Positions 3,545 through 46,574 of a stretch of 49,011 nt of DNA are shown here, piece by piece. Location: the UHGV virus genome UHGV-1353889, one strand, 5' to 3'. Below the pieces are notes generated by a model. It was given only the letters and a program-made list of their open reading frames with translations, was not told where the DNA came from and ran no database searches. Position 1 is the stretch's first letter; each line of letters starts with the position of its first letter. Origin of the DNA: a virus. Position numbers and translations under genes: made by a program.

Positions 3545-3708
3545 TGGTTGCCTCCTTTGCGCCACATCGCATTCAGATATTTGTTTTGATTTACTGATGG
3601 AAAAGAATTTCTCTTAAGTAATTCCTCTCTCGATGGCATTGGCTTTACGCGTTGGCGAATAATCATTTCTGCCGGAAGAATGCCGGGATTGTATGCAAGT
3701 CCTCTCAT
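3541..3708 (-). CDS. Small conserved protein (55 aa), hypothetical
   Basis: Manual translation [55 protein letters not shown]; near-identical copy at 44091..44258; below the 60-aa cutoff of the ORF track. Confidence 0.45.
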
Positions 3709-3724
3709 GGTAAATTCCTCTTTG

Positions 3725-4039
3725 TTAATTTATTCGTATGCCTGTTCTCTCTTCATCGAGTTTTTTTAGCTTGTATCGCATAGCTCTCACTGAATAAATT
3801 GAGCGGCAGGTTGCAATTGCTATTTCTTCTGCGGAGAACTTACCGAAAAGTGATACTTCGGCTCTTGTCCAGCGTCTTCCACGAAGTCGGCTAACAATGT
3901 CAGCGCCAATCCTTGTTGCTTTCGCCATTACTGCTTTTTCAGTCCTTTCCAGTTTTTCAGCGATAACTTCAACTGGCATTGTCGCCGCTACTTCGCGTAA
4001 GAAATCGACTTCCCATTTCTCCCAAGGAGTCTTTTTCAT
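3725..4039 (-). CDS. Conserved phage protein, putative DNA-binding (two HTH-like segments)
   Basis: 104 aa; near-identical paralogue at 44553..44867. Confidence 0.45.
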
Positions 4040-4050
4040 AGGCGATACCG

Positions 4051-4539
4051 TTATTTGATAAGAAGTGAAGGTTTCCCAACTTTGAGTTGAGCACCGGGGA
4101 TATTTATTCCTGCTTTTAGTTGGTGTTTGATTGCCAGTTTGTCGGCTTTAATTGTCGTTTCGAACTCAACGTATTCAGGAGGAAGGGCGCTTGAGTCGAT
4201 GATTTCTACAGTTTCTGACGGTTTGCGGATTGTTACCTGGTGAATACCTGCTCGAATCTTTTTCTTTCCAACCATTTCAAGCGATGACGCTATATACGTC
4301 ATAATGCTATCAATCTTATTTTGAATTACTGCTGCTCTTTCATTCAGTGACTTTGCCTCTTCCTTGAGGCGTTCAGCATAACCAGACTCATTTTTAATGA
4401 TGGCAAGAAGTTGCTCTATTTTATCGGTAAATTCTCCTTCCATGCCTTCTATTGTGTCAGCAATCATCTCTGGTTCTAAATCTGAATCCATCAATTTTGC
4501 GTATTCATTGGCAATTTCATACAGTTTGCTCACTGGCAA
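4051..4539 (-). CDS. Gp157-like protein (Sipho_Gp157 family, tentative)
   Basis: 162 aa acidic coiled-coil protein directly downstream of the RecT-family gene, the usual partner position; identical copy at 44879..45367. Confidence 0.5.
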   Translation of the reverse strand: MPVSKLYEIANEYAKLMDSDLEPEMIADTIEGMEGEFTDKIEQLLAIIKNESGYAERLKEEAKSLNERAAVIQNKIDSIMTYIASSLEMVGKKKIRAGIHQVTIRKPSETVEIIDSSALPPEYVEFETTIKADKLAIKHQLKAGINIPGAQLKVGKPSLLIK

Positions 4540-5428
4540 CCTCCAGTTTCGCTTTGCATTCTATGTAAATGGCTTGTACGTTCTGCTGCAATTTCATTCC
4601 AGATGTCAGGCGATATGCTTCTGCAAAATATCGCTTCAAATCATCCATGTTTTCTGCCTGAGCCATTTCATCACAAAGAAGTTGTGCTTTATCCGTTATT
4701 TCCTGCTGGCGTTTCCGTTCATCTTCGCGGATATCTTCCTCTGATTTGTGCGGCATAACTGGTTCAGTCCACACACCTTCTTCTTCGTTTAGTACGTGAA
4801 TAGCACTATCAAGACGTGATGCCTTAGGCCAATACTTGCTTGCACGCTTTACGACCGTCTTTCGCGCCATCTCATTCCAGTGATTTACCCATGGTCCTTT
4901 ATCGCTGAATGCCGCCTTGCTTGTTTTCCTTACAGCCTCAATTTCAGCCAGACTCATCTCTTCCGTTAGATAATCACCTGCTGGCGTCTTAACTGTGCAG
5001 TAAACGCCAACGATATCACCACGATCACCGAAGGCGTTGTATTTATGGGTTGGTGCTTTATCAAGCCCGTTTGACTCATAGGTATCGTTAGCATGAACAA
5101 GTTTTGCCTGACCCCATGAGATAACACCAGACTCCATTGCAATATGGAGCAATCCCATATAGCTGATATCAAGGCAAACCATGCCGTCGCGCGGAACCAG
5201 ATAAGCCAGTTTGCTAGCCGGGTTTAAGGTGATGCCGATCGCCGCAACATTGATGATGGCGTTCTGTGCGCTGGTTGGATTTGCCAGTGCCGTTTTAGCC
5301 AGGTAATCATTTTTCTGGAAATACTGAATTGCAAACTGGCTTTCCTTAGCCCATGTCACCGTCTGTTCAGTCAATGCTCCGCAGAATAACTGCTCCTGCT
5401 GTTTAACGAATTCAACGATATTGCTCAT
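4517..5428 (-). CDS. RecT-family single-strand annealing recombinase
   Basis: 303 aa; segment GPWVNHWNEMARKTVVKRASKYWP parallels the RecT core GPWVTHWEEMAKKTAIRRLFKYLP; identical copy at 45345..46256. Confidence 0.75.
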   Translation of the reverse strand: MSNIVEFVKQQEQLFCGALTEQTVTWAKESQFAIQYFQKNDYLAKTALANPTSAQNAIINVAAIGITLNPASKLAYLVPRDGMVCLDISYMGLLHIAMESGVISWGQAKLVHANDTYESNGLDKAPTHKYNAFGDRGDIVGVYCTVKTPAGDYLTEEMSLAEIEAVRKTSKAAFSDKGPWVNHWNEMARKTVVKRASKYWPKASRLDSAIHVLNEEEGVWTEPVMPHKSEEDIREDERKRQQEITDKAQLLCDEMAQAENMDDLKRYFAEAYRLTSGMKLQQNVQAIYIECKAKLEVASEQTV

Positions 5429-5736
5429 GCTGCTTCTCCATAAATGTGTCTGCGTTTGAATATTGCGAAGGCATATTCAGCCTTAACTCTTTCGGTTATT
5501 GCATCCCAGAACCATTCAGCGGCTTTTTCCTGATAGTTACAGTCATCATCTTCCAGCCAGTCGATAGCGTCCTTAGTGTGTTCATCTGGTTTATATGAGC
5601 GAAGCATTTCGCTTATTGGGTCGCAACGTTTGCAGAGACGATCAACTTCACTGTTGATTCGTTCGTAATCTTCATCAGTAAAACTTGCGATAATTTGCGA
5701 TATTTCACGCTTATCATTCAGAGTCAGAATCATCAT
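5425..5736 (-). CDS. Hypothetical early protein
   Basis: 103 aa, start overlaps RecT-family gene stop; copy at 46253..46564 with one substitution. Confidence 0.45.
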   Translation of the reverse strand: MMILTLNDKREISQIIASFTDEDYERINSEVDRLCKRCDPISEMLRSYKPDEHTKDAIDWLEDDDCNYQEKAAEWFWDAITERVKAEYAFAIFKRRHIYGEAA

Positions 5737-5817
5737 CTTTCTCCTGTTCTTTGTGCTGATTGAGCATTTTGTTCATCTGACGAATGAATTCTTCGTCTGA
5801 CCAGTTATCTGTAAAAC

Positions 5818-16087: not shown

Positions 16088-16162
16088 GGGTCAGTCGTAT
16101 AAAGGTCATTACGGAAGGCTGCTAACCTTCTTATCGTGGTTCGAGTCCACGCTGTCCCGCCA
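16088..16162 (+). tRNA. tRNA gene (manual fold; anticodon loop CUGCUAA gives GCU; isotype uncertain)
   Basis: Acceptor GGGTCAG/CTGTCCC (one U-U mismatch), T-arm CGTGG-TTCGAGT-CCACG, 3' G-CCA; 4-nt variable loop is atypical for a GCU tRNA. Confidence 0.5.
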
Positions 16163-16167
16163 AATAT

Positions 16168-16243
16168 GCTGGTTTAGCTCCAATGGTAGAGCGGTCGCCT
16201 TGTAAGCGAATGGGTAGCGGTTCAAGTCCGTTAACCAGCACCA
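16168..16243 (+). tRNA. tRNA gene, predicted anticodon UGU (Thr) by manual cloverleaf
   Basis: 76 nt; perfect 7-bp acceptor stem GCTGGTT/AACCAGC, D-arm TAGCTCCAATGGTAGAGC, anticodon loop CTTGTAA, T-loop TTCAAGT, discriminator A plus CCA. Confidence 0.65.
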
Positions 16244-31005: not shown

Positions 31006-33113
31006 GTTTACCAGAGGGGTTTGTTCTGGATGAACAGCCTGATAACTCACAGCTTCCTGATGGCTTTGTGCTTGATGCACAACCAGAACAGCAGCAATCT
31101 CCTTTGGTTTCACTAGAGGAAAATTCCAGACAGGAAAATGTTGTTAATAATGCTAACGGCTTCGACCGTTTTATGTATGGCGTTCTCAGTGGATTGATGG
31201 ATGTTGGTAAAGGTGTTGGCCTGTTTCAGGACATGACACCAGAAGAGCAAGCCGCAATTCAGTCTCTACAGCAGAAGTTAGCGGCAAAACCATCAACCGC
31301 ACAAGATGTTGGTGAGTTCGTTGGACAAGCAGCGCCATTTGTTAGTGGTGGTGGGATTATTTCTCAGGTTCCGAAAGGGGCGGCAAGGCTGGCTGCCGCC
31401 GCAGGGCTTGGTGCTGGAGAAGGGGCTATTGTAGCCAATGGAACAAATAGCGATGTTGCTTCCGGCGCTGCTATTGGCGCTGTGGCTGGCCCTGTAGCCG
31501 AGATTGTTGGTCCAGCGCTTGGGAAGATTGCAGGAAAAATTAAAAATAGTGCCGGAGATATTTATCGCTCATCCGTAGGGATGGGTAGTAAATCATCTAA
31601 AGCAACGTTAAAGAAAGCTGCTGGCGCAATGGACAATAAATTTATCGGCGGGCAACGAGCTATTCAAGATTTCGCCGATGAAGTTAATCCTGATTTTAAC
31701 GCGATAAATGCTATTCGTGAGCTAGAACTGGAAAATTATGCCACTCCAGGCATGATCTCTAATAATCCTGCTGTCAGGGCTCTTGATAATGCAGTGGCAA
31801 GTCTCCCTGGAACAGAGATTAGTGAGGCGCATAAGCGTTTTATTACTGAATTAGGAAGAAAAGCTGATGAAATGATAACTTCATTTGGGGGAAGCCTTGA
31901 TAAGCAACTGGTTTCTGACAGGCTTGCAGATAATTTTGATAAAACCATTTCATCATTACAAAATCAGTCAGATAACATCTACAACAAAATTGCCGAAAAG
32001 GTTCCTGTAAGAGACCGGATTGAGGCAACTAATACATTGAATTTTTTAGAGGATTTTGCTGATGACATAGGTGGAATTGATGAATTATCTCCAATAATGA
32101 AGCGGACATTGAACCGACTTGATCCAAACACCTTGCCAACGTATGGGCGTTTAGATCTCGCTAGAAAGCAGGTTGGACAAGCTATTGGCAAAGGCTCTGG
32201 TCCATTCAAGGATGAAGAAACAGGTGTTCTTAAAAAGTTATATGCAGCCATAACAGATGACCAACAGGCTGTCGCAGAAAAATATGGCGCAGGGGAATTA
32301 TGGACGCTTGGTAAGGAGTTGGTAAAAAAACGAAAATCCATTGAAGATGATGCTGTAACCGTCTTGGGTAGAAAACTTCAGCAATCAGCAATTCCAAAAG
32401 TTGAAAGTGCTGTTGTTAATATGGCAAAAGGAAACGGTGGCGACTTTAGGCAATTAATGAAGTCGATTCCAAAGGATATGCGGCAGGAAGTTGCGCTCAC
32501 CTCAATGAATAAAGCATTTACCAGCTATGCCAAATCACCTGGTCAGCAATTAGGAGTTGATGGATTTGTAAAATGGTATAACGGAATGTCACGCAATGGG
32601 GCCAATATGAAGGCTCTCCGTGATGCTATTGGCACAGATGCATCAAAGCGCCTTGATACGATTTATCAAGCAGCTAAGGCTATGAATAGACTCAATACTG
32701 GTAAGCAGTATGCTAGTAGTCTTGTGGATCAGCAAGTTAATAACTTTCTGAAAGAAAAGGGTAGTCTCGCAAAAATTTATGGAATAGCCTCAAAAGCTGC
32801 TGCGGCGGAAGGTATTACAAGCTTATCTGGTCTCCCTGGTGTAGGTGCAACAGGGGTGATAACGTCTGCATTGATGTCAGGGAAAACAAGCAGGATAAAG
32901 GCTGCTGATGCTCTGCTATCTTCTCCTGAGTTTAAATCAATGCTATTTCGCCTGCAAAACGCACCAGTAGACAGAGCAGAAGTGAGACGCGCAATAGAAA
33001 GGAAACTGATGCAATCTGGGGCATTTAAGAGATGGGAGAAAACCTTATCAACAGATGAAGCAAAAACCATTGCCCGCACGGGGATTATTACATGGCTCGC
33101 TAGTGACAGTTAG
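30990..33113 (+). CDS. Ejection protein, gp16-like
   Basis: 707 aa, last gene of ejection cassette. Confidence 0.5.
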
Positions 33114-33337
33114 TCAACTTTGGTTATTTTGCCTTCTTTTTCTTGATGAACTTTGCATCCATCATCTTTTGATAGCCAAACTAAAAACTTTAAAACCTTA
33201 AACACAAGTACGGCTACTGCAATGAAAGCACCAATCGAAATTATTGCTAGTGAAATTATTTGCATTGGTGCTTTTAATGCAGGGAAAATAGTGTAAATGA
33301 TCGCGAAAACAGTAATTATGAGGAACCATCGCTTCAC
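33110..33337 (-). CDS. Small two-helix membrane protein (sieA-position accessory gene)
   Basis: 75 aa with two hydrophobic helices; divergent from the Panacea-like gene. Confidence 0.4.
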   Translation of the reverse strand: MKRWFLIITVFAIIYTIFPALKAPMQIISLAIISIGAFIAVAVLVFKVLKFLVWLSKDDGCKVHQEKEGKITKVD

Positions 33338-33705
33338 ACCAACCTCCTTAGTTTTGAGCAGGATACCAGATGATACTTTATTGGTGGAGTGGTGTGTGAA
33401 AACGTGTCAACGACAAACCATCCACAACTTGGACGAATGATTTAGCAAAAAGTGCTATTTTTGGTGTTTGGTGTCATAGAAAAGTGAATAGCTCACTTTT
33501 CAACATTGCATGAAACTTGCAGGAAATGTGACATTACCTTATAGGTAACTTCGGCGAAAATGCAGTAAATGTGAAACGTAATGGTTTAAACATGTCGCTA
33601 AAGTGGTTGTAAGTTAGCCTCCGAAGGATTGCTGATAGCTTTGTTATAGTATTAAATGACATTTGACATAGTTGGATACTTAGCTGTGGCTATCAAGATG
33701 GAGGT

Positions 33706-34155
33706 GTGTTCATGCTTACTTGTTTTGATGTCGCCGACTACTTCCTGTCGCGGTGTGACGAGGATAGCGGTGACACAATCTCTAATTTAAAATTACAAAA
33801 GCTTGTTTACTATGCTCAGGGTTTTTCATTGGCGTTGCTTGGCGAGCCTCTTTTTCAGAATAAGATGGAAGCTTGGATGCATGGCCCTGTTGTCCCTGAG
33901 CTTTATCGCCGTTATAAACAATATGGTAATGGCGCTATCCCTTCTCCAGAGTCTTTTGATGCTGAAAAATTCAGCGAAGAACAGTTAGAGCTATTAGAAG
34001 AAGTCTGGGATGTTTTTGGGCAATTTTCTGCCTGGAAACTGAGGAACATGACACACGAAGAGTCACCATGGAGATCAAACTATATTGAGGGTGTTGGTGG
34101 TTCTGAAATTAGCTCTAAGGAGATGGCAGAGTACTTTGCAACTCGGATTAACTAA
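33706..34155 (+). CDS. Panacea (DUF4065/COG3600)-like domain protein, putative antitoxin/adaptor
   Basis: 149 aa; NLKLQKLVYYAQG ... EAWMHGPVVPELY matches my recollection of the DUF4065 signature. Confidence 0.6.
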   Translation: MFMLTCFDVADYFLSRCDEDSGDTISNLKLQKLVYYAQGFSLALLGEPLFQNKMEAWMHGPVVPELYRRYKQYGNGAIPSPESFDAEKFSEEQLELLEEVWDVFGQFSAWKLRNMTHEESPWRSNYIEGVGGSEISSKEMAEYFATRIN

Positions 34156-34159
34156 CGAG

Positions 34160-34579
34160 ATGGCAAGAAAATCTAAAAGGATTATCCCCCCTGCTGAATC
34201 TACAGGTAAGTTAAAGTTAGGGCCGCAGTCAGGGGGGAATTCAGATCAAAAGAAACCGAAGTTTTCATTCTGTTACATCCAAAGCTCTCACTGCATAACG
34301 AAATGCCAAAAAGATGAGAAAGCTGGCTTAGCTGATAAATTATACAGATTAAGTCAACTAACATGGGCAGAGATTAAGCAGCAAGGTAGGCATAAGCTTG
34401 GATTTGAGAAGATTGCAAGGGGTGCAATTAAAGCAGGTATCCCCAGTCATATAACGGAAGACGTAGATCATTTCTTGGCTTTTAGATTTGATGATTTGAA
34501 AGCCATGGTTGGTTATCGTCTTGGATCGACATTTTTTGTTATATGGCTTGATAGAGAGTTCAACCTATACAAGCACTAA
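34160..34579 (+). CDS. Uncharacterized 139-aa partner of the Panacea-like gene (candidate toxin/effector)
   Basis: ATG 5 nt after upstream stop; basic disordered N-terminus, C-terminal beta-rich segment YRLGSTFFVIWLD; terminator follows. Confidence 0.5.
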   Translation: MARKSKRIIPPAESTGKLKLGPQSGGNSDQKKPKFSFCYIQSSHCITKCQKDEKAGLADKLYRLSQLTWAEIKQQGRHKLGFEKIARGAIKAGIPSHITEDVDHFLAFRFDDLKAMVGYRLGSTFFVIWLDREFNLYKH

Positions 34580-34582
34580 TAA

Positions 34583-34607
34583 AACCCACCGTCAGGTGGG
34601 TTTTTTA
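34583..34607. terminator. Bidirectional intrinsic terminator
   Basis: Hairpin AACCCACCGTCAGGTGGGTT flanked by A-run upstream and T-run downstream. Confidence 0.65.
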
Positions 34608-34631: not shown

Positions 34632-35168
34632 TCAAACAACCCACCAGTTTGCCTGATTGGATGCCAGCCTTGCAGTTTTTATGGAATTAATTATGCCATG
34701 CTCAAGAGCCTTGTTAGCATCCAAAATGGTCGAGTCTGCTATCAGGGATGCCCACCTAATATGGGTTCCGATGTCGATATTGAACGTCTCAACGAAGCGA
34801 TCAAGATCGTTATCGAGGCATTTCCCGTACTCTCTCAGTCTGGCATGGTCGGCGGCTGGGGTGGCAAAGCCCCATAATAGAGGATGTAACAGGAATCTTG
34901 ATAATGGGTTTGCGAAACGTTCTGAGCCAGCCAGGAAAACGATATTAGCTATGGATTCAACATTGCTTATGTTGTGAGTTCTAACGGTAACAGGGAGTGA
35001 CTTAAGAAAGTTATACGCAGTAAAACCAGCGGCAGTTTCCCCTCCCTGACTTGATATATGGATATTTAATTCAGTTGCGCCTTGAGATAATGCGGTGAGA
35101 CAGTGGTTCTGAAGTTGCCCAACAGTGGCGGTGTTAACGGGGCATAAGAAATGAATTGTGTGCAGCAT
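34632..35168 (-). CDS. ClpP-like (S14-family fold) serine peptidase homologue
   Basis: 178 aa; ISSQGGETAAG parallels ClpP INSPGGVITAG; candidate triad Ser (VESIA), His (LLHPL), Asp (ILDAN); start overlaps mnt stop (TAATG). Confidence 0.6.
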   Translation of the reverse strand: MLHTIHFLCPVNTATVGQLQNHCLTALSQGATELNIHISSQGGETAAGFTAYNFLKSLPVTVRTHNISNVESIANIVFLAGSERFANPLSRFLLHPLLWGFATPAADHARLREYGKCLDNDLDRFVETFNIDIGTHIRWASLIADSTILDANKALEHGIINSIKTARLASNQANWWVV

Positions 35169-35416
35169 TATTTATCATCCTTACCATACATGGTTTTCAG
35201 CGTCTCCAGCAGCGCCTCTTTGAATTTGTCAGCTTCTTGCTGAGCAAATGACTCAACTGACTTTGGCGACCTATCTTCATCAATCGCGGCTTGCAAAATC
35301 ATGACGATCTCGGAGTTAACAGAGCGACCATTTTTTGATGCTCTAACAGCAAGAGCCTCGCGTAAAGATTCAGGGATTCTTACCGTAGTTGGAGAAATTG
35401 ACACACCCTTTGCCAT
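35168..35416 (-). CDS. mnt: Mnt-like repressor (ribbon-helix-helix)
   Basis: 82 aa; NGRSVNSEI RHH motif, same length as P22 Mnt. Confidence 0.7.
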   Translation of the reverse strand: MAKGVSISPTTVRIPESLREALAVRASKNGRSVNSEIVMILQAAIDEDRSPKSVESFAQQEADKFKEALLETLKTMYGKDDK

Positions 35417-35530: not shown

Positions 35531-35683
35531 ATGGAGAAAGAAATAAGTAAGATTTTGGTAAGGATGCCGCAGTCGTTAAAGGATGCTATCGGTAGCAGGG
35601 CAAAGGAAGAGTGCAGGTCGTTTAACTCAGAGGTTATCAAGCGCCTGATAGACAGCCTGAAGAAAGAGGGGGTGGCGATATGA
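35531..35683 (+). CDS. arc: Arc-like repressor (ribbon-helix-helix)
   Basis: 50 aa from ATG at 35531 with GGAGGG RBS; CRSFNSEVIKRLIDSLKKEGV parallels P22 Arc. Confidence 0.7.
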   Translation: MEKEISKILVRMPQSLKDAIGSRAKEECRSFNSEVIKRLIDSLKKEGVAI

Positions 35684-35862
35684 ATAAAGAAGATGGCTTT
35701 AAGTGCTCCTTCTGCGGAAAGCCTCAGCATGAATGTGCAATGTTGATTCGCGCTAAAGCAGAGATATTTATCTGTAGTGGTTGTGTATCTCTTTGCGTTG
35801 AAGCGATGGGGAAAGAGTTAAATTCTAGAAAAACAATGTTAGATGTGAACATAAAACAGTGA
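35680..35862 (+). CDS. ClpX N-terminal zinc-binding-domain-like protein (ZBD only)
   Basis: 60 aa; [10 protein letters not shown] ... [10 protein letters not shown] parallels ClpX ZBD CSFCGKSQHE ... YICDECVDLC; ATGA overlap with arc stop. Confidence 0.6.
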
Positions 35863-35924
35863 AGCCCCAACTGCGGGAACAGTCAGGGCTTCGGTTGTCA
35901 GTAAATCCGTGGAGAAAAACCAAC

Positions 35925-37005: not shown

Positions 37006-39951
37006 ATGACAGACATTACAGCCAATGTTGTAGTGAGTATGCCTTCGCAACTCTTCACTATGGCGCGTTCTTTTAAAGCAGTTGCCAATGGCAAAATTTA
37101 TATCGGTCAGGTTGACACTGACCCGGTAAATCCTGAAAACCAGATTCAGGTTTATGTAGAGAACGAAGACGGCTCGCACGTTCCTGTTTCGCAACCAATC
37201 ATCATTAACGCTGCTGGATATCCGGTATATAACGGACAGATTGCCAAATTCGTAACCGTGCAAGGCCATTCTATGGCTGTTTATGATGCGTATGGTACAC
37301 AGCAGTTCTATTTTCCTAATGTGCTGAAGTATGATCCTGATCAGTTACGGCAGCAATTAGAAGACCCAGATGGAGCGAATAAATACCCAAAACTTCAGAT
37401 AGCAAGATGGAGAGACAGTTATGATGTAAGAGGTTGGGGGGCTATTGGTGATGGTGTTCATGATGATACATCAGCTCTATCAGAATTACTTTCTGTTGCA
37501 ACAGGTGGTGAAAAGATAGATGGGCGAGGGCTTACTTTTAAAGTATCAACTCTTCCAGATGTCAGTCGATTTAAAAATGCTCGTTTTTTATTTGAGAGAA
37601 TACCGGGTCAGCCTCTTTTTTATGCTTCTGAAGATTTTATCCAGGGAGAGTTATTTAAAATTACAGATACACCGTGGTACAACGCCTGGACGCAGGATAA
37701 AACGTTTGTATATGACAATGTCATCTATGCGCCTTTTATGGCTGGAGACCGCCATGGTGTAAATAACCTCCATGTTGCATGGGTTCGCTCAGGAGATGAC
37801 GGGAAGACCTGGACAACGCCGGAATGGCTTACAGATTTACATGAAAACTATCCCACAGTTAACTATCACTGCATGAGTATGGGGGTTGTCAGAAATCGCC
37901 TTTTTGCTGTAATTGAGACGCGGACCGTGAGCGGAAATAAACTGCAGGTTGCAGAGTTGTGGGATCGCCCAATGAGTCGCAGCCTTCGCGTTTATGGTGG
38001 TATAACGAAAGCAGCAAATCAGCAAGTCGCTTATATTCGCATTACTGATCACGGATTATTTGCTGGTGATTTTGTCAACTTCTCAAACTCTGGTGTTACA
38101 GGTGTTACCGGGAATATGACGGTGACTACTGTTATTGATAAAAATACTTTTACAGTTACGACGCAAAATACCCAGGATGTGGATCAGAATAACGAGGGTA
38201 GATACTGGAGTTTTGGTACATCATTTCACTCGTCACCATGGAGAAAAACCAGTCTTGGAACTATTCCTTCTTTTGTTGACGGAAGCACTCCTGTTACTGA
38301 GATTCACAGTTTTGCGACGATTAGCGATAACAGTTTTGCTGTTGGCTACCATAATGGTGATATTGATCCACGCGAGCTTGGGATACTCTATTTCTCTGAT
38401 GCTTTCGGTTCTCCTGGTAGCTTTGTTCGCAGACGCATACCTGTAGAATATGAGGCGAATGCATCTGAGCCATGTGTAAAATATTATGATGGCATTCTGT
38501 ATCTGACGACCAGGGGGACATTAAGTACTCAACCCGGTAGTTCATTGCACAGAAGCTCTGATTTAGGTACATCATGGAATTCTCTTCGCTTCCCAAATAA
38601 TGTTCATCACTCAAACCTTCCTTTTGCCAAAGTTGGCGATGAGCTGATTATTTTTGGCAGTGAGCGCGCATTTGGTGAGTGGGAAGGAGGAGAACCTGAT
38701 AACCGTTATGCAGGAAATTATCCAAGAACATTTATGACCAGAGTTAACGTCAATGAGTGGAGTCTGGATAATGTAGAGTGGGTTAATGTTACTGATCAGA
38801 TTTATCAGGGCGGAATAGTTAACTCTGCGGTTGGTGTTGGTTCAGTTTGTATCAAAGACAACTGGCTGTACTACATTTTCGGTGGGGAAGACTTTCTAAA
38901 CCCATGGAGCATAGGGGATAACAACAGAAAATATCCTTATGTTCACGATGGTCACCCGGCTGATTTGTATTGTTTCAGGGTGAAAATTAAACAGGAAGAA
39001 TTTGTTTCAAGGGATTTTGTCTACGGAGCCACTCCTAACAGAACGCTTCCTACTTTTATGTCGACGTCAGGCGTGAGGACGGTTCCTGTACCCGTTGATT
39101 TCACAGATGATGTTGCCGTCCAGTCACTGACTGTCCATGCAGGTACATCAGGAAAAGTTCGCGCGGAAGTCAAACTTGAGGGTAATTACGCCATTATTGC
39201 GAAGAAAGTACCGTCTGATGATGTTACCGCTCAGAGATTAATCGTTAGCGGCGGTGAAACAACGTCTTCAGCAGATGGTGCAATGATAACGTTGCATGGT
39301 TCCGGAAGCAGTACTCCACGTCGCGCGGTATATAACGCACTCGAACATCTTTTTGAGAACGGAGATGTTAAACCTTATCTTGATAATGTAAATGCTCTTG
39401 GTGGTCCGGGAAACAGGTTCTCGACAGTTTATCTTGGCTCCAATCCTGTGGTTACCAGTGACGGAACATTAAAGACAGAGCCGGTCTCTCCTGACGAAGC
39501 ATTGCTGGATGCCTGGGGTGACGTCAGGTATATCGCTTATAAATGGCTGAACGCTGTCGCTATAAAGGGGGAAGAAGGGGCGAGGATACATCATGGTGTA
39601 ATCGCGCAGCAACTTCGTGATGTTCTTATTTCTCACGGACTCATGGAAGAAGAAAGCACAACATGCCGCTATGCGTTTCTTTGCTATGACGATTATCCCG
39701 CAGTATATGATGACGTCATTACTGGCCAAAGGGAAATGCCGCTGACTGATAATGACGGGAGCATCATTGTTGATGAGGATGATAATCCAGTGATGGTAAT
39801 GGAAGACATCATTGAGCGCGTTGAAATAACGCCAGCAGGATCTAGATGGGGGGTCAGACCTGATCTCTTATTCTATATCGAGGCGGCATGGCAGCGCAGA
39901 GAAATAGAAAGAATAAAAGCTAGGTTAGACTTAATAGAAGGGAAGCACTAA
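37006..39951 (+). CDS. Tailspike: P22 gp9-type head-binding domain fused to endosialidase-like Asp-box domain and C-terminal intramolecular-chaperone domain
   Basis: 981 aa; N-terminus matches P22 tailspike head-binding domain; Asp-boxes SGDDGKTW and SSDLGTSW; C-terminal self-cleaving chaperone-like module. Confidence 0.75.
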
Positions 39952-40429: not shown

Positions 40430-40660
40430 CTCAGGTCACTAATACTATCTAAGTAGTTGATTCATAGTGACTGGATATGTTGTGTTTTGTAGTATTATGC
40501 AGTCTATTATTTAGACTAAACCCTTCATAACATATTGATATTTACAGTGTTTTCTGTTTCTCGTTCAGCTTTTTTATACTAAGTTGGCATTATAAAAAAG
40601 CATTGCTTATCAATTTGTTGCAACGAACAGGTCACTATCAGTCAAAATAAAATCATTATT
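40430..40660. other. Lambda-type attachment site with P-arm-like, core (GCTTTTTTATACTAA at 40568-40582) and P'-arm sequences, i.e. attP-like rather than attL
   Basis: Core 15-mer exact; right flank matches lambda P' arm into int; left flank resembles lambda P arm (CAGGTCACTAATAC ... TTCTCGTTCAGC). Confidence 0.8.
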
Positions 40661-41726
40661 TGATTTCAATTTTGTCCCACTCCCTGCCTCTGTCATCACG
40701 ATACTGTGATGCCATGGTGTCCGACTTATGCCCGAGAAGATGTTGAGCAAACTTATCGCTTATCTGCTTCTCATAGAGTCTTGCAGACAAACTGCGCAAC
40801 TCGTGAAAGGTAGGCGGATCCCCTTCGAAGGAAAGACCTGATGCTTTTCGTGCGCGCATAAAATACCTTGATACTGTGCCGGATGAAAGCGGTTCACGAC
40901 GAGTAGATGCAATTATGGTTTCTCCGCCAAGAATCTCTTTGCATTTATCAAGTGTTTCCTTCATTGATATCCCGAGAGCATCAACATGCAATGCTGTTGG
41001 GATGGCAATTTTTACGCCTGTTTTGCTTTGCTCGACATAAAGATATCCATCTACGATATCAGACCACTTCATTTCGCATAAATCACCAACTCGTTGCCCG
41101 GTAACAACAGCCAGTTCCATTGCAAGTCTTAGCCAATATGGTGATGATTCTGCTGCTTGATAAATTTTCAGGTATTCGTCAGCCGTAAGTCTTGATCTCC
41201 TTACCTCTGATTTTGCTGCGCGAGTGGCAGCGACCGGGTTTGTTGTTATATGGCCTTCAGCTATTGCCTCTCGGAATGCATCGCTCAGTGTTGATCTGAT
41301 TAACTTGGCTGACGCAGCCTTGCCCTCGTCTATGTATCCATTGAGCATTGCCGCAATTTCTTTTGTGGTGATGTCTTCAAGTGGAGCATCAGGCAGACCC
41401 CTCCTTATTGCTTTAATTTTGCTCATGTAATTTATGAGTGTCTTCTGCTTGATTCCTCTGCTGGCGAGGATTTTTTCGTAGCGATCAAGCCATGAATGTA
41501 ACGTAACAGAATTATCACTGTTGATTCTCGCTGTCAGAGGCTTGTGTTTGTGTCCTGAAAATAACTCAATGTTGGCCTGTATAGCTTCAGTGATTGCGAT
41601 TCGCCTGTCTCGGCCTAATCCAAACTCTTTACCCGTCCTTGGGTCCCTGTAGCAGTAATATCCATTGTTTCTTATATAAAGGTTAGGGGGTAAATCCCGG
41701 CGCTCATGACTTCGCCTTCTTCCCAT
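40656..41726 (-). CDS. int: Integrase (lambda Int)
   Basis: 356 aa, near-identical to lambda Int as I recall it. Confidence 0.95.
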   Translation of the reverse strand: MGRRRSHERRDLPPNLYIRNNGYYCYRDPRTGKEFGLGRDRRIAITEAIQANIELFSGHKHKPLTARINSDNSVTLHSWLDRYEKILASRGIKQKTLINYMSKIKAIRRGLPDAPLEDITTKEIAAMLNGYIDEGKAASAKLIRSTLSDAFREAIAEGHITTNPVAATRAAKSEVRRSRLTADEYLKIYQAAESSPYWLRLAMELAVVTGQRVGDLCEMKWSDIVDGYLYVEQSKTGVKIAIPTALHVDALGISMKETLDKCKEILGGETIIASTRREPLSSGTVSRYFMRARKASGLSFEGDPPTFHELRSLSARLYEKQISDKFAQHLLGHKSDTMASQYRDDRGREWDKIEIK

Positions 41727-44258: not shown

Positions 44259-44536
44259 GATTTACTCTCCACGAACTGGTCAATAGCCATGCTAAGTGAT
44301 ACACCTAAAGTCTCGATATGCTGCTGAATATCCTGTAGCGTCTGCGCCTGAGATAACAGGATTTCACGGTTGCATAACTCTTTGACCAGATGCTCAAACT
44401 TGCTGTAATAACCGATACGGCTTAGTGTTTCTTTCCCTGCATTCTCACCTTCTTTGATAATTCCTCTTTCATTAAGAATCAGGTCGTGTTTTGTTCCAGT
44501 AATAACGTATTTACCGAGGTCGATGTTTAGCTTCAT
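44255..44536 (-). CDS. Hypothetical protein (insertion relative to element 1)
   Basis: 93-aa ORF present only in element 2 between the 55-aa and 104-aa genes. Confidence 0.4.
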
Positions 44537-44552
44537 TGTTAATTACTCCATG

Positions 44553-44867
44553 TTAATTTATTTGTATGCCTGCTCTTTTTTCATCGAGTTTTTTTAGCTT
44601 GTATCGCATAGCTCTTACTGAATAAATTGAGCGGCAGGTTGCAATTGCTATTTCTTCTGCGGAGAACTTACCGAAAAGTGATACTTCGGCTCTTGTCCAG
44701 CGTCTTCCACGAAGTCGGCTAACAATGTCAGCGCCAATCCTTGTTGCTTTCGCCATTACTGCTTTTTCAGTCCTTTCCAGTTTTTCAGCGATAACTTCAA
44801 CTGGCATTGTCGCCGCTACTTCGCGTAAGAAATCGACTTCCCATTTCTCCCAAGGAGTCTTTTTCAT
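44553..44867 (-). CDS. Conserved phage protein, putative DNA-binding (copy of 3725..4039)
   Basis: 104 aa, 3 substitutions near C-terminus relative to element 1. Confidence 0.45.
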   Translation of the reverse strand: MKKTPWEKWEVDFLREVAATMPVEVIAEKLERTEKAVMAKATRIGADIVSRLRGRRWTRAEVSLFGKFSAEEIAIATCRSIYSVRAMRYKLKKLDEKRAGIQIN

Positions 44868-44878
44868 AGGCGATACCG

Positions 44879-45367
44879 TTATTTGATAAGAAGTGAAGGT
44901 TTCCCAACTTTGAGTTGAGCACCGGGGATATTTATTCCTGCTTTTAGTTGGTGTTTGATTGCCAGTTTGTCGGCTTTAATTGTCGTTTCGAACTCAACGT
45001 ATTCAGGAGGAAGGGCGCTTGAGTCGATGATTTCTACAGTTTCTGACGGTTTGCGGATTGTTACCTGGTGAATACCTGCTCGAATCTTTTTCTTTCCAAC
45101 CATTTCAAGCGATGACGCTATATACGTCATAATGCTATCAATCTTATTTTGAATTACTGCTGCTCTTTCATTCAGTGACTTTGCCTCTTCCTTGAGGCGT
45201 TCAGCATAACCAGACTCATTTTTAATGATGGCAAGAAGTTGCTCTATTTTATCGGTAAATTCTCCTTCCATGCCTTCTATTGTGTCAGCAATCATCTCTG
45301 GTTCTAAATCTGAATCCATCAATTTTGCGTATTCATTGGCAATTTCATACAGTTTGCTCACTGGCAA
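44879..45367 (-). CDS. Gp157-like protein (copy)
   Basis: Identical to 4051..4539. Confidence 0.5.
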   Translation of the reverse strand: MPVSKLYEIANEYAKLMDSDLEPEMIADTIEGMEGEFTDKIEQLLAIIKNESGYAERLKEEAKSLNERAAVIQNKIDSIMTYIASSLEMVGKKKIRAGIHQVTIRKPSETVEIIDSSALPPEYVEFETTIKADKLAIKHQLKAGINIPGAQLKVGKPSLLIK

Positions 45368-46256
45368 CCTCCAGTTTCGCTTTGCATTCTATGTAAATGG
45401 CTTGTACGTTCTGCTGCAATTTCATTCCAGATGTCAGGCGATATGCTTCTGCAAAATATCGCTTCAAATCATCCATGTTTTCTGCCTGAGCCATTTCATC
45501 ACAAAGAAGTTGTGCTTTATCCGTTATTTCCTGCTGGCGTTTCCGTTCATCTTCGCGGATATCTTCCTCTGATTTGTGCGGCATAACTGGTTCAGTCCAC
45601 ACACCTTCTTCTTCGTTTAGTACGTGAATAGCACTATCAAGACGTGATGCCTTAGGCCAATACTTGCTTGCACGCTTTACGACCGTCTTTCGCGCCATCT
45701 CATTCCAGTGATTTACCCATGGTCCTTTATCGCTGAATGCCGCCTTGCTTGTTTTCCTTACAGCCTCAATTTCAGCCAGACTCATCTCTTCCGTTAGATA
45801 ATCACCTGCTGGCGTCTTAACTGTGCAGTAAACGCCAACGATATCACCACGATCACCGAAGGCGTTGTATTTATGGGTTGGTGCTTTATCAAGCCCGTTT
45901 GACTCATAGGTATCGTTAGCATGAACAAGTTTTGCCTGACCCCATGAGATAACACCAGACTCCATTGCAATATGGAGCAATCCCATATAGCTGATATCAA
46001 GGCAAACCATGCCGTCGCGCGGAACCAGATAAGCCAGTTTGCTAGCCGGGTTTAAGGTGATGCCGATCGCCGCAACATTGATGATGGCGTTCTGTGCGCT
46101 GGTTGGATTTGCCAGTGCCGTTTTAGCCAGGTAATCATTTTTCTGGAAATACTGAATTGCAAACTGGCTTTCCTTAGCCCATGTCACCGTCTGTTCAGTC
46201 AATGCTCCGCAGAATAACTGCTCCTGCTGTTTAACGAATTCAACGATATTGCTCAT
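45345..46256 (-). CDS. RecT-family single-strand annealing recombinase (copy)
   Basis: Identical to 4517..5428. Confidence 0.75.
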   Translation of the reverse strand: MSNIVEFVKQQEQLFCGALTEQTVTWAKESQFAIQYFQKNDYLAKTALANPTSAQNAIINVAAIGITLNPASKLAYLVPRDGMVCLDISYMGLLHIAMESGVISWGQAKLVHANDTYESNGLDKAPTHKYNAFGDRGDIVGVYCTVKTPAGDYLTEEMSLAEIEAVRKTSKAAFSDKGPWVNHWNEMARKTVVKRASKYWPKASRLDSAIHVLNEEEGVWTEPVMPHKSEEDIREDERKRQQEITDKAQLLCDEMAQAENMDDLKRYFAEAYRLTSGMKLQQNVQAIYIECKAKLEVASEQTV

Positions 46257-46564
46257 GCTGCTTCTCCATAAATGTGTCTGCGTTTGAATATTGCGAAGGC
46301 ATATTCAGCCTTAACTCTTTCGGTTATTGCATCCCAGAACCATTCAGCGGCTTTTTCCTGATAGTTACAATCATCATCTTCCAGCCAGTCGATAGCGTCC
46401 TTAGTGTGTTCACCTGGTTTATATGAGCGAAGCATTTCGCTTATTGGGTCGCAACGTTTGCAGAGGCGATCAACTTCACTGTTGATTCGCTCGTAATCTT
46501 CATCAGTAAAACTTGCGATTATTTGCGATATTTCACGCTTATCATTCAGAGTCAGAATCATCAT
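46253..46564 (-). CDS. Hypothetical early protein (copy of 5425..5736)
   Basis: 103 aa with one substitution; track ORF 46253..46672 is an artificial read-through across the N gap. Confidence 0.45.
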   Translation of the reverse strand: MMILTLNDKREISQIIASFTDEDYERINSEVDRLCKRCDPISEMLRSYKPGEHTKDAIDWLEDDDCNYQEKAAEWFWDAITERVKAEYAFAIFKRRHIYGEAA

Positions 46565-46574
46565 CTTTCTCCTG

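Follow-up and report, generated by a model that had tools for sequence, protein, structure and literature searches.

A Panacea gene and a putative RelE-fold RNase gene form a two-gene cassette in a P22-like Escherichia coli prophage

The cassette and its published relatives

The 49,011-nucleotide virus genome UHGV-1353889 (the window, by which we always mean this whole stretch of DNA) carries, within a P22-like Escherichia coli prophage, a two-gene cassette in which panA, a gene for a Panacea-domain protein, is followed by a gene for a putative RNase of predicted RelE fold. Both genes are plus-strand open reading frames (ORFs), and 4 nt separate the TAA stop codon of panA (34153-34155) from the ATG of the partner gene (34160). 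This arrangement had been described correctly in an original prediction made from the letters of the window, which also took the upstream gene for a member of DUF4065 (Panacea) because of a signature motif. The motif, NLKLQKLVYYAQG, is present at residues 25-37 of PanA, and residues 28-120 match Pfam PF13274 (SocA_Panacea) with a score of 87.3 bits (E=1.8e-24), above the Pfam gathering cutoff of 25.7, which places the protein in the family. The start codon given in that prediction (GTG at 33706, for a gene spanning 33706..34155) has to be revised, as ATG at 33712 is more likely: a Shine–Dalgarno sequence read from the DNA, GGAGG (33700..33704, plus strand), leaves 7 nt to the ATG but a mere 1 nt to the GTG, and the Prokaryotic Genome Annotation Pipeline (PGAP) calls the 147-residue form. 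With this start, panA (33712..34155, plus strand) codes for a stand-alone Panacea protein in which Pfam and NCBIfam scans find a lone Panacea domain, with no DNA-binding domain and no room for one. In PGAP annotation this ORF is a 'Panacea domain-containing protein' (WP_000954425.1), and both genes are called identically in E. coli NCCP12480, which matches the locus at 100% identity.

The original prediction had called the partner unknown. However, Kurata et al. had searched 20,209 genomes for DUF4065, a domain to which they gave the name Panacea, and arrived at 1,268 predicted PanAT loci with 88 partner clusters (Kurata et al., 2022; PMC8832971). Cluster T1 of their Dataset S1, which holds at least 217 of the 1,268 predicted loci, includes the pairs of Salmonella phage vB_SemP_Emek (YP_006560565.1/YP_006560566.1) and E. 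coli MOD1 (WP_089622957.1/WP_077635758.1); these entries have the gene order A|T, a PanA without an N-terminal domain and a 'Phage' flag. The window is 99.3% identical in nucleotide sequence to the Emek pair (gp15/gp16); PanA differs from YP_006560565.1 at two residues and the 139-residue core of the partner differs from YP_006560566.1 at one, while gene order, prophage slot and terminator are the same as in Emek. Judged by sequence, the window pair belongs to cluster T1 and was already catalogued, and the earlier headline is not a discovery. What we add is the homology of the partner to the PB-BECR1 RNase domain (see below), the likely correct start codon and the allelic-cassette pattern. We found no later literature on T1, and the accessions that we searched are not in the NetFlax supplements.

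Although T1 is a large family, both published tests of its toxicity were negative. The Emek protein YP_006560566.1 and the E. coli protein WP_077635758.1 are listed as predicted 'mRNase' and as 'not toxic' in E. coli, which is a native host here, and antitoxin rescue is marked n/a for both pairs (PMC8832971, SI Table S1). As the authors point out, a protein that is harmless in their assay may still be toxic in other settings. The dataset lists intergenic distances of -62 and -20 nt, which show that the ORFs expressed were the annotated forms of 161 and 147 residues (PMC8832971); their translation begins inside panA and adds 22 or 8 residues at the N-terminus, whereas the 139-residue form is backed by PGAP and by the family alignment. 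Other than these longer annotations and constructs, nothing substantive distinguishes the published T1 pairs from the pair studied here, which is essentially the same.

These results bear directly on whether the cassette is a classical type II toxin–antitoxin (TA) system for addiction or stabilisation, in which the partner would be a constitutive RelE-like translation inhibitor held by PanA and the 'not toxic' outcome a construct artefact. Antitoxin-first order, 4-nt coupling and small protein sizes are typical of such systems, and nine other PanAT pairs have been validated as TAs (PMC8832971). Moreover, both T1 constructs tested were N-terminally extended (their starts overlap panA by 62 and 20 nt), and PGAP and the family alignment favour the form without extension. 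The validated PanAT pairs, of Bartonella for example, also put the Panacea gene first and couple it tightly to a small partner, and in Bartonella a stand-alone Panacea domain, as in the window PanA, neutralises the toxin directly (PMC8832971, PMC10440598). There, however, a toxic partner is rescued by PanA, whereas toxicity was not seen for T1, and the validated toxins of stand-alone Panacea proteins are membrane proteins, from which the fold of the window partner differs. The negative result was obtained for two independent T1 members, of which one comes from E. coli itself, and the extensions join a tail predicted to be disordered and should not obviously inactivate the core. In phage phiv205-1 panA is frameshifted (A5 to A4) while the partner is intact, and in three clonal chicken isolates the partner is frameshifted (C6 to C7); both changes lie in homopolymer runs and may be sequencing errors, which makes them unreliable as evidence on toxicity, and we do not use them as such. 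The original prediction had put forward a TA or abortive-infection pair and had itself named a partner harmless when expressed alone as the result that would speak against it. Since this is what was published for the near-identical Emek protein and for an E. coli T1 member, albeit with extended constructs, the classical TA reading is contradicted, and we consider it unlikely.

The partner protein and its kinship with NsnC

The partner gene (34160..34579, plus strand), of PanT cluster T1, codes for 139 residues, a basic and disordered tail of about 30 residues followed by a core with a predicted RelE/BECR fold. The original prediction could recognise no family in it; this holds for Pfam, in which no family was matched, but not more widely, since the protein matches phrog_8366 (E 3.5e-66), the C-terminal profile positions 178-279 of 284 of the PADLOC model for NsnC (5.9e-6) and, with a score under the model cutoff, NCBIfam MAG6450_fam, which is matched by 37 of the 39 members of our partner alignment. 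A word-indexed search returned 182 relatives, nearly all of them 'hypothetical proteins' of 135-145 residues, and a full hidden Markov model (HMM) search of 1.84 billion cluster representatives (clusters defined at 50% identity) returned 1,536 clusters at E <=1e-3, 868 of them at 1e-10. The best 150 of these clusters are all stand-alone proteins, of 94-158 residues. In the 39-sequence alignment 12 columns are invariant (F35, W69, G81, E83, P95, A107, R109, V117, G118, W129, D131 and L136) and H78, R120, Y137 and H139 are among those that are nearly so; the window protein has all of these residues.

The AlphaFold2 model built from this alignment has a mean predicted local distance difference test score (pLDDT) of 86.4 and a predicted template modelling score of 0.76. 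Residues 1-30 are disordered in the model (pLDDT 53-70); these are followed by a strand (34-36), a pair of helices (51-65, 69-73) and four further strands (83-86, 104-110, 114-121 and 124-131). The basic unstructured N-terminus and beta-rich C-terminus of the original prediction are both recovered here, and the RelE/ParE-like fold that it had offered as a possibility gains the support of the model and, weakly, of the Foldseek ranking considered below. We thus confidently predict that the core adopts the characteristic alpha/beta fold of the RelE/ParE superfamily (BECR). The protein does not belong to the curated RelE, YoeB, YafQ, HigB or ParE families, as judged with Pfam, NCBIfam, PDB sequences and hhalign. 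It has no detectable sequence similarity to RelE, YoeB, YafQ or HigB, and it differs from RelE-type toxins further in its extra, conserved basic N-terminal tail of about 30 residues, in its pairing with a Panacea protein and not with a RelB, YefM, DinJ or HigA antitoxin, and in that the T1 partner was not toxic on overexpression. A Foldseek search of viral structures (BFVD) with the partner matched nothing.

The closest kinship with a protein of assigned role is with NsnC. All 39 partner relatives match the NsnC model at E <=0.01 (best 1.9e-10), at about positions 178-279 of 284. NsnC is the predicted RNase effector of the Menshen (NsnABC) anti-phage system, and the matched region has been defined as its PB-BECR1 RNase domain, which bears an H-R-H triad (PMC12065111). 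The homology is significant and extends across the whole core, so that the partner has the equivalent of the PB-BECR1-type C-terminal domain, and its conserved H78, E83, R109, R120, Y137 and H139 are compatible with the H-R-H triad. However, the partner lacks the N-terminal inactive-PIN domain of NsnC, having only the 30-residue tail before its core; no genes for NsnA (ParB-DUF262) or NsnB (ABC ATPase) lie near the cassette, whose neighbours are an ejection gene, a 75-residue ORF, a Clp-like gene, Arc-family genes and an antirepressor gene; and the putative controlling protein beside the partner is a Panacea protein, where Menshen has an ATPase. Because NsnA, NsnB and the N-terminal domain of NsnC are all missing, the cassette shares an effector domain with Menshen but not the system, and we rejected an identification as Menshen. 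A full-text literature search for BECR and Panacea together gave no relevant paper, and we found none that links the T1 family to BECR RNases or to the Menshen effector. The PB-BECR1 homology offers a concrete catalytic hypothesis (H78, R109 and H139) and a defence context.

Distribution of the cassette and its possible role

We compared 27 related loci, 23 of them fetched and four taken from three further look-ups; they came from context look-ups and from a genome scan in which contigs were searched with a profile of a 9-sequence partner alignment, and near-identical E. coli and Salmonella copies were left out. A Panacea gene lies immediately upstream of the partner gene, on the same strand, in 26 of the 27 (22 of the 23 fetched, and the four others), and the upstream PanA homologues have phmmer E values of 1e-45 to 1e-86. 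The hosts come from about ten phyla, among them the Gamma- and Betaproteobacteria, Desulfobacterota, Cyanobacteria, Acidobacteria, Bacteroidota and Firmicutes, and include Aeromonas, Vibrio, Morganella, Xenorhabdus, Pantoea, Methylopumilus and Massilia, as well as Solidesulfovibrio, Syntrophobacteraceae, Acidobacteria, cyanobacteria, Hallella and Oscillospiraceae. With the 4-nt gap, the constant Panacea gene and flanking genes that vary, the pair has the adjacency expected of PanAT. The contexts are mostly mobile or of defence type: in a P2-like prophage with the antirepressor gene on one side and baseplate genes on the other, beside a P22-type portal gene, beside the restriction gene hsdR, at a prophage end after dinI, in an element with a P4-type primase, and beside an integrase gene.

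In the window the cassette sits between a DNA-transfer (ejection) gene and the immI region of the P22-like prophage, which we take to be the slot where P22 carries sieA. Cassette-free P22-like phages match the window only at 33332-33375 to the left of the cassette and again from about 34585 rightwards. Phage EC.P3, in turn, is 96-100% identical to the window in the flanks and most of the leader, whereas identity falls to 44-80% exactly across both ORFs; its PanA is 71% and its partner 51% identical to ours. Because only the two coding regions differ between nearly identical backbones, the sequences read as a co-diverged allelic cassette. The genes panA and partner are translationally coupled, travel together and diverge together. 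More than 1,000 contigs carry the pair, and the cassette is matched in 82 of 5,426 complete E. coli genomes (1.5%), 48 of which carry the window allele at >=99% identity, while the other 34 match only the 3' end of the partner gene and the terminator, at about 85%. The one of these 34 that we opened, PA45B, holds the EC.P3-type allele, intact but unannotated: its partner gene (NZ_CP021288.1; locus L031, 1653..2075) codes for 140 residues and has no annotation in RefSeq. Among the other genomes with the short match, the rows listed mostly have no annotated feature at the partner site, and the partner family is probably under-called by PGAP.

How the cassette acts can be sketched as follows. It would be a self-contained, horizontally mobile two-gene PanA–PanT 'T1' module, lodged between the ejection gene and immI and expressed from the prophage. 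PanA would bind the partner directly, as stand-alone Panacea antitoxins do, and control it, perhaps through an interface between its variable C-terminal 27 residues and the variable N-terminal 30 residues of the partner; the partner would be a latent RNase using H78, R109 (and/or R120) and H139, together with E83 and Y137, and would be inactive, or lack an essential target, in the unperturbed cell. Such latency would explain why near-identical proteins were not toxic on overexpression. On a cue such as infection by another phage the cassette would fire, giving the lysogen RNase-based exclusion or abortive infection, and PanA would then be an inhibitor and a sensor rather than a labile antidote. 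Overall, we regard as finely balanced the proposal that PanA controls a latent RNase of BECR type, that the pair is cargo of the prophage, and that a cue such as superinfection triggers it in defence or exclusion. The homology to the Menshen effector and the positions of the cassette among cargo genes lend some support to the defence or abortive-infection alternative. A more specific form of the proposal, in which PanA and T1 make up a two-protein, trigger-activated anti-phage system and not a TA, with the Panacea domain sensing the cue and releasing or co-activating a latent PB-BECR1-type RNase, seems to us possible but somewhat doubtful. If true, it would explain the harmless overexpression of T1, seemingly the largest Panacea-associated partner family, would be the first direct case for Panacea as a sensor, would tie Panacea modules to the effector repertoire of Menshen and would make the cassette in the sieA slot a prophage exclusion system. 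Two co-diverged alleles in a P22-like exclusion-gene slot, on near-identical backbones in about 1.5% of complete E. coli genomes, are a convenient natural system for the question whether Panacea proteins act as sensors.

Several points weigh against a latent, PanA-controlled RNase. RNase activity, a complex of PanA with the partner and protection from phage are predictions for every T1 member, and the published non-toxicity fits a non-toxic, non-defence role equally well. The RelE/BECR fold comes from structure prediction and is unseen by sequence methods: RelE/ParE-superfamily structures rank first in a Foldseek search of the PDB, at E values of only about 0.3-1; searches of PDB sequences with the partner and the family profile gave a spurious match to Caskin-2 and then nothing; and an hhalign comparison of the partner family with E. 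coli YafQ aligned 8 columns, insignificantly. We infer the catalytic roles of H78, R109 (and/or R120) and H139, a candidate H-R-H triad, from sequence. PADLOC has no PanA model, and neither protein belongs to a recognised defence system. Just 12 of 50,697 phage records have a T1 homologue, seven of them from Pseudomonas aeruginosa phages and the others from P22-like phages of enterobacteria, and one of the related loci (L029) lies among ordinary, housekeeping-type chromosomal genes. Lastly, a consensus scan of the region upstream of panA found no plus-strand sigma-70 site, expression in the lysogen being assumed.

The partner might instead have a non-toxic role outside defence, for example in RNA or ribosome binding, in regulation, or in counter-defence to the advantage of the phage, and PanA would be its partner or regulator. 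Apart from the lack of toxicity of T1, this is consistent with the varied biochemistry performed by RelE/ParE-fold proteins and with the view that Panacea is sensory where other domains neutralise (PMC10440598), and the cassette is kept intact in the 82 E. coli genomes noted above. However, H78, E83, R109, R120, D131, Y137 and H139 show little or no variation across phyla, which fits an enzyme better than a binder; the closest relative with an assigned role is the predicted RNase effector of a defence system; and co-divergence of alleles, seen here in both genes, is a typical mark of conflict systems. We regard a role of this kind as improbable.

Flanking signals and the surrounding prophage

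The cassette-specific region upstream of panA (33376..33711, plus strand) presumably holds the promoter. The original prediction had described a ~370-bp untranslated leader; the region is in fact divergent and intergenic, as a minus-strand ORF for a hydrophobic protein of 75 residues, without a Pfam match, starts at 33337 (33110..33337). The upstream region is 96-99% identical between the two cassette alleles, whose coding regions have diverged, and an Rfam scan of it matched no family. The repeats that the original prediction had proposed as autoregulatory operators, AAATGTGA(C/A)A, occur in exactly two copies in the window (33524 and 33567), where 0.53 are expected and where 13 of 100 shuffles gave two or more copies. 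Each lies inside one copy of a 14-nt direct repeat, TGCAG(G/T)AAATGTGA (33518-33531 and 33561-33574, plus strand), with a spacing of 43 bp; a repeat as long, with at most one mismatch, arose in 9 of 300 shuffles of the 374-bp region (3%), so the pair is mildly unusual but not compelling. The region also contains a perfect 9-bp inverted repeat (33479-33501) and a TTACC/GGTAA palindrome. In the Morganella, Xenorhabdus, Pantoea, Aeromonas and other cassettes none of these repeats and palindromes has a recognisable counterpart in the leader, and phylogenetic footprinting of the leader was uninformative, the P22-like copies being too alike and the Morganella copy too different. Panacea has been argued to be probably not a transcriptional autoregulator and has been proposed to be primarily a sensor (NetFlax; PMC10440598). 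This argument, the lack of a DNA-binding domain in PanA and the absence of the repeat from the leaders of other genera make the operator idea weak, unsupported rather than refuted. A 14-mer, GCAAAAAGTGCTAT, is common to the window (33445..33458) and to the leader of the Pantoea cassette (at about 4300 of locus L025), leaders that are otherwise unalignable, and the leader of the Morganella cassette has five GTTACC repeats; the shared 14-mer and the GTTACC repeats may be due to chance or may be lineage-specific regulatory sites.

Downstream, the strong bidirectional terminator of the original prediction stands. This intrinsic terminator (34581..34606) consists of a hairpin (34581-34604) and a T-run to 34606, and folds with -15.8 kcal/mol (z=-3.7), a value equalled by 1 of 200 shuffles. 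The Emek record annotates a terminator at the same hairpin, which a consensus scan missed. An A-run before and a T-run after the stem make it usable both ways, and it is common to the cassette and to the convergent gene for a protein of the Clp-protease family (34632..35168, minus strand; 178 residues, PF00574 4.3e-12). The latter appears to be co-transcribed with an Arc/ribbon-helix-helix gene (35168..35416, minus strand) in the Mnt position of immI. In phage phiv205-1 the Clp-like gene is labelled 'head maturation protease', which looks wrong given its position. A second Clp-related gene, for a 60-residue protein with a ClpX C4 zinc finger (35680..35862, plus strand; PF06689 7.6e-11), lies between arc and ant.

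The two Clp-related genes, both within 1.3 kb, recall the type VI system SocAB, in which case PanA would be a ClpXP adaptor that delivers the partner for degradation, possibly with these neighbours. PanA does match the NCBIfam model SocA_antitoxin (71.4 bits, E 7.2e-20). This score, however, is far under the equivalog cutoff of 190 bits, and the partner belongs to a different family from SocB and is unrelated to it. The Clp-like gene is missing beside the near-identical cassettes (99-100% in nucleotides) of Emek and E. coli NCCP12480, and distant cassettes have no Clp neighbours. Moreover, toxicity would be expected of a type VI toxin in the absence of its adaptor, and the T1 partner showed none. 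With Clp neighbours that do not consistently accompany the cassette and a partner that proved harmless in the published tests, we consider a SocAB-like system highly unlikely; for want of a conserved association we also rejected any functional tie between the cassette and the Clp-like and ClpX zinc-finger genes.

The position of the 75-residue ORF is a second variable cargo slot, adjoining the cassette; it is taken by a gene for a 129-residue Sf6 gp38-like protein in Emek and by one for 164 residues in NCCP12480. On the other side, the immI region comprises the Arc/Mnt-like gene, arc, the ClpX zinc-finger gene, ant and the sar antisense RNA (35858..35924, minus strand; Rfam RF00262, 87.7 bits). 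The overlap of sar with the start of the antirepressor gene confirms an immI of P22 type. The tailspike gene (37006..39951, plus strand) codes for a P22 head-binding domain, a complete endosialidase (beta-propeller 7.9e-233) and a Peptidase_S74 chaperone domain, and an endosialidase tailspike makes the prophage K1-capsule-specific and CUS-3-like. Directly after it lies a lambda-type integrase gene (40656..41726, minus strand); no neuO-like repeat array was found between the two. A direct repeat of 2,042 bp, 99.3% identical between its copies (3705..5746 and 44533..46574), carries RecT-family and Gp157-family genes. Of these copies the second is located past the integrase gene. Rather than one genome simply wrapped around as a circle, the arrangement suggests another lambdoid prophage standing in tandem and having the same recombination module. 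Two adjacent tRNA genes (16088..16240, plus strand; Rfam, 54.8 and 61.2 bits) also lie inside the prophage.

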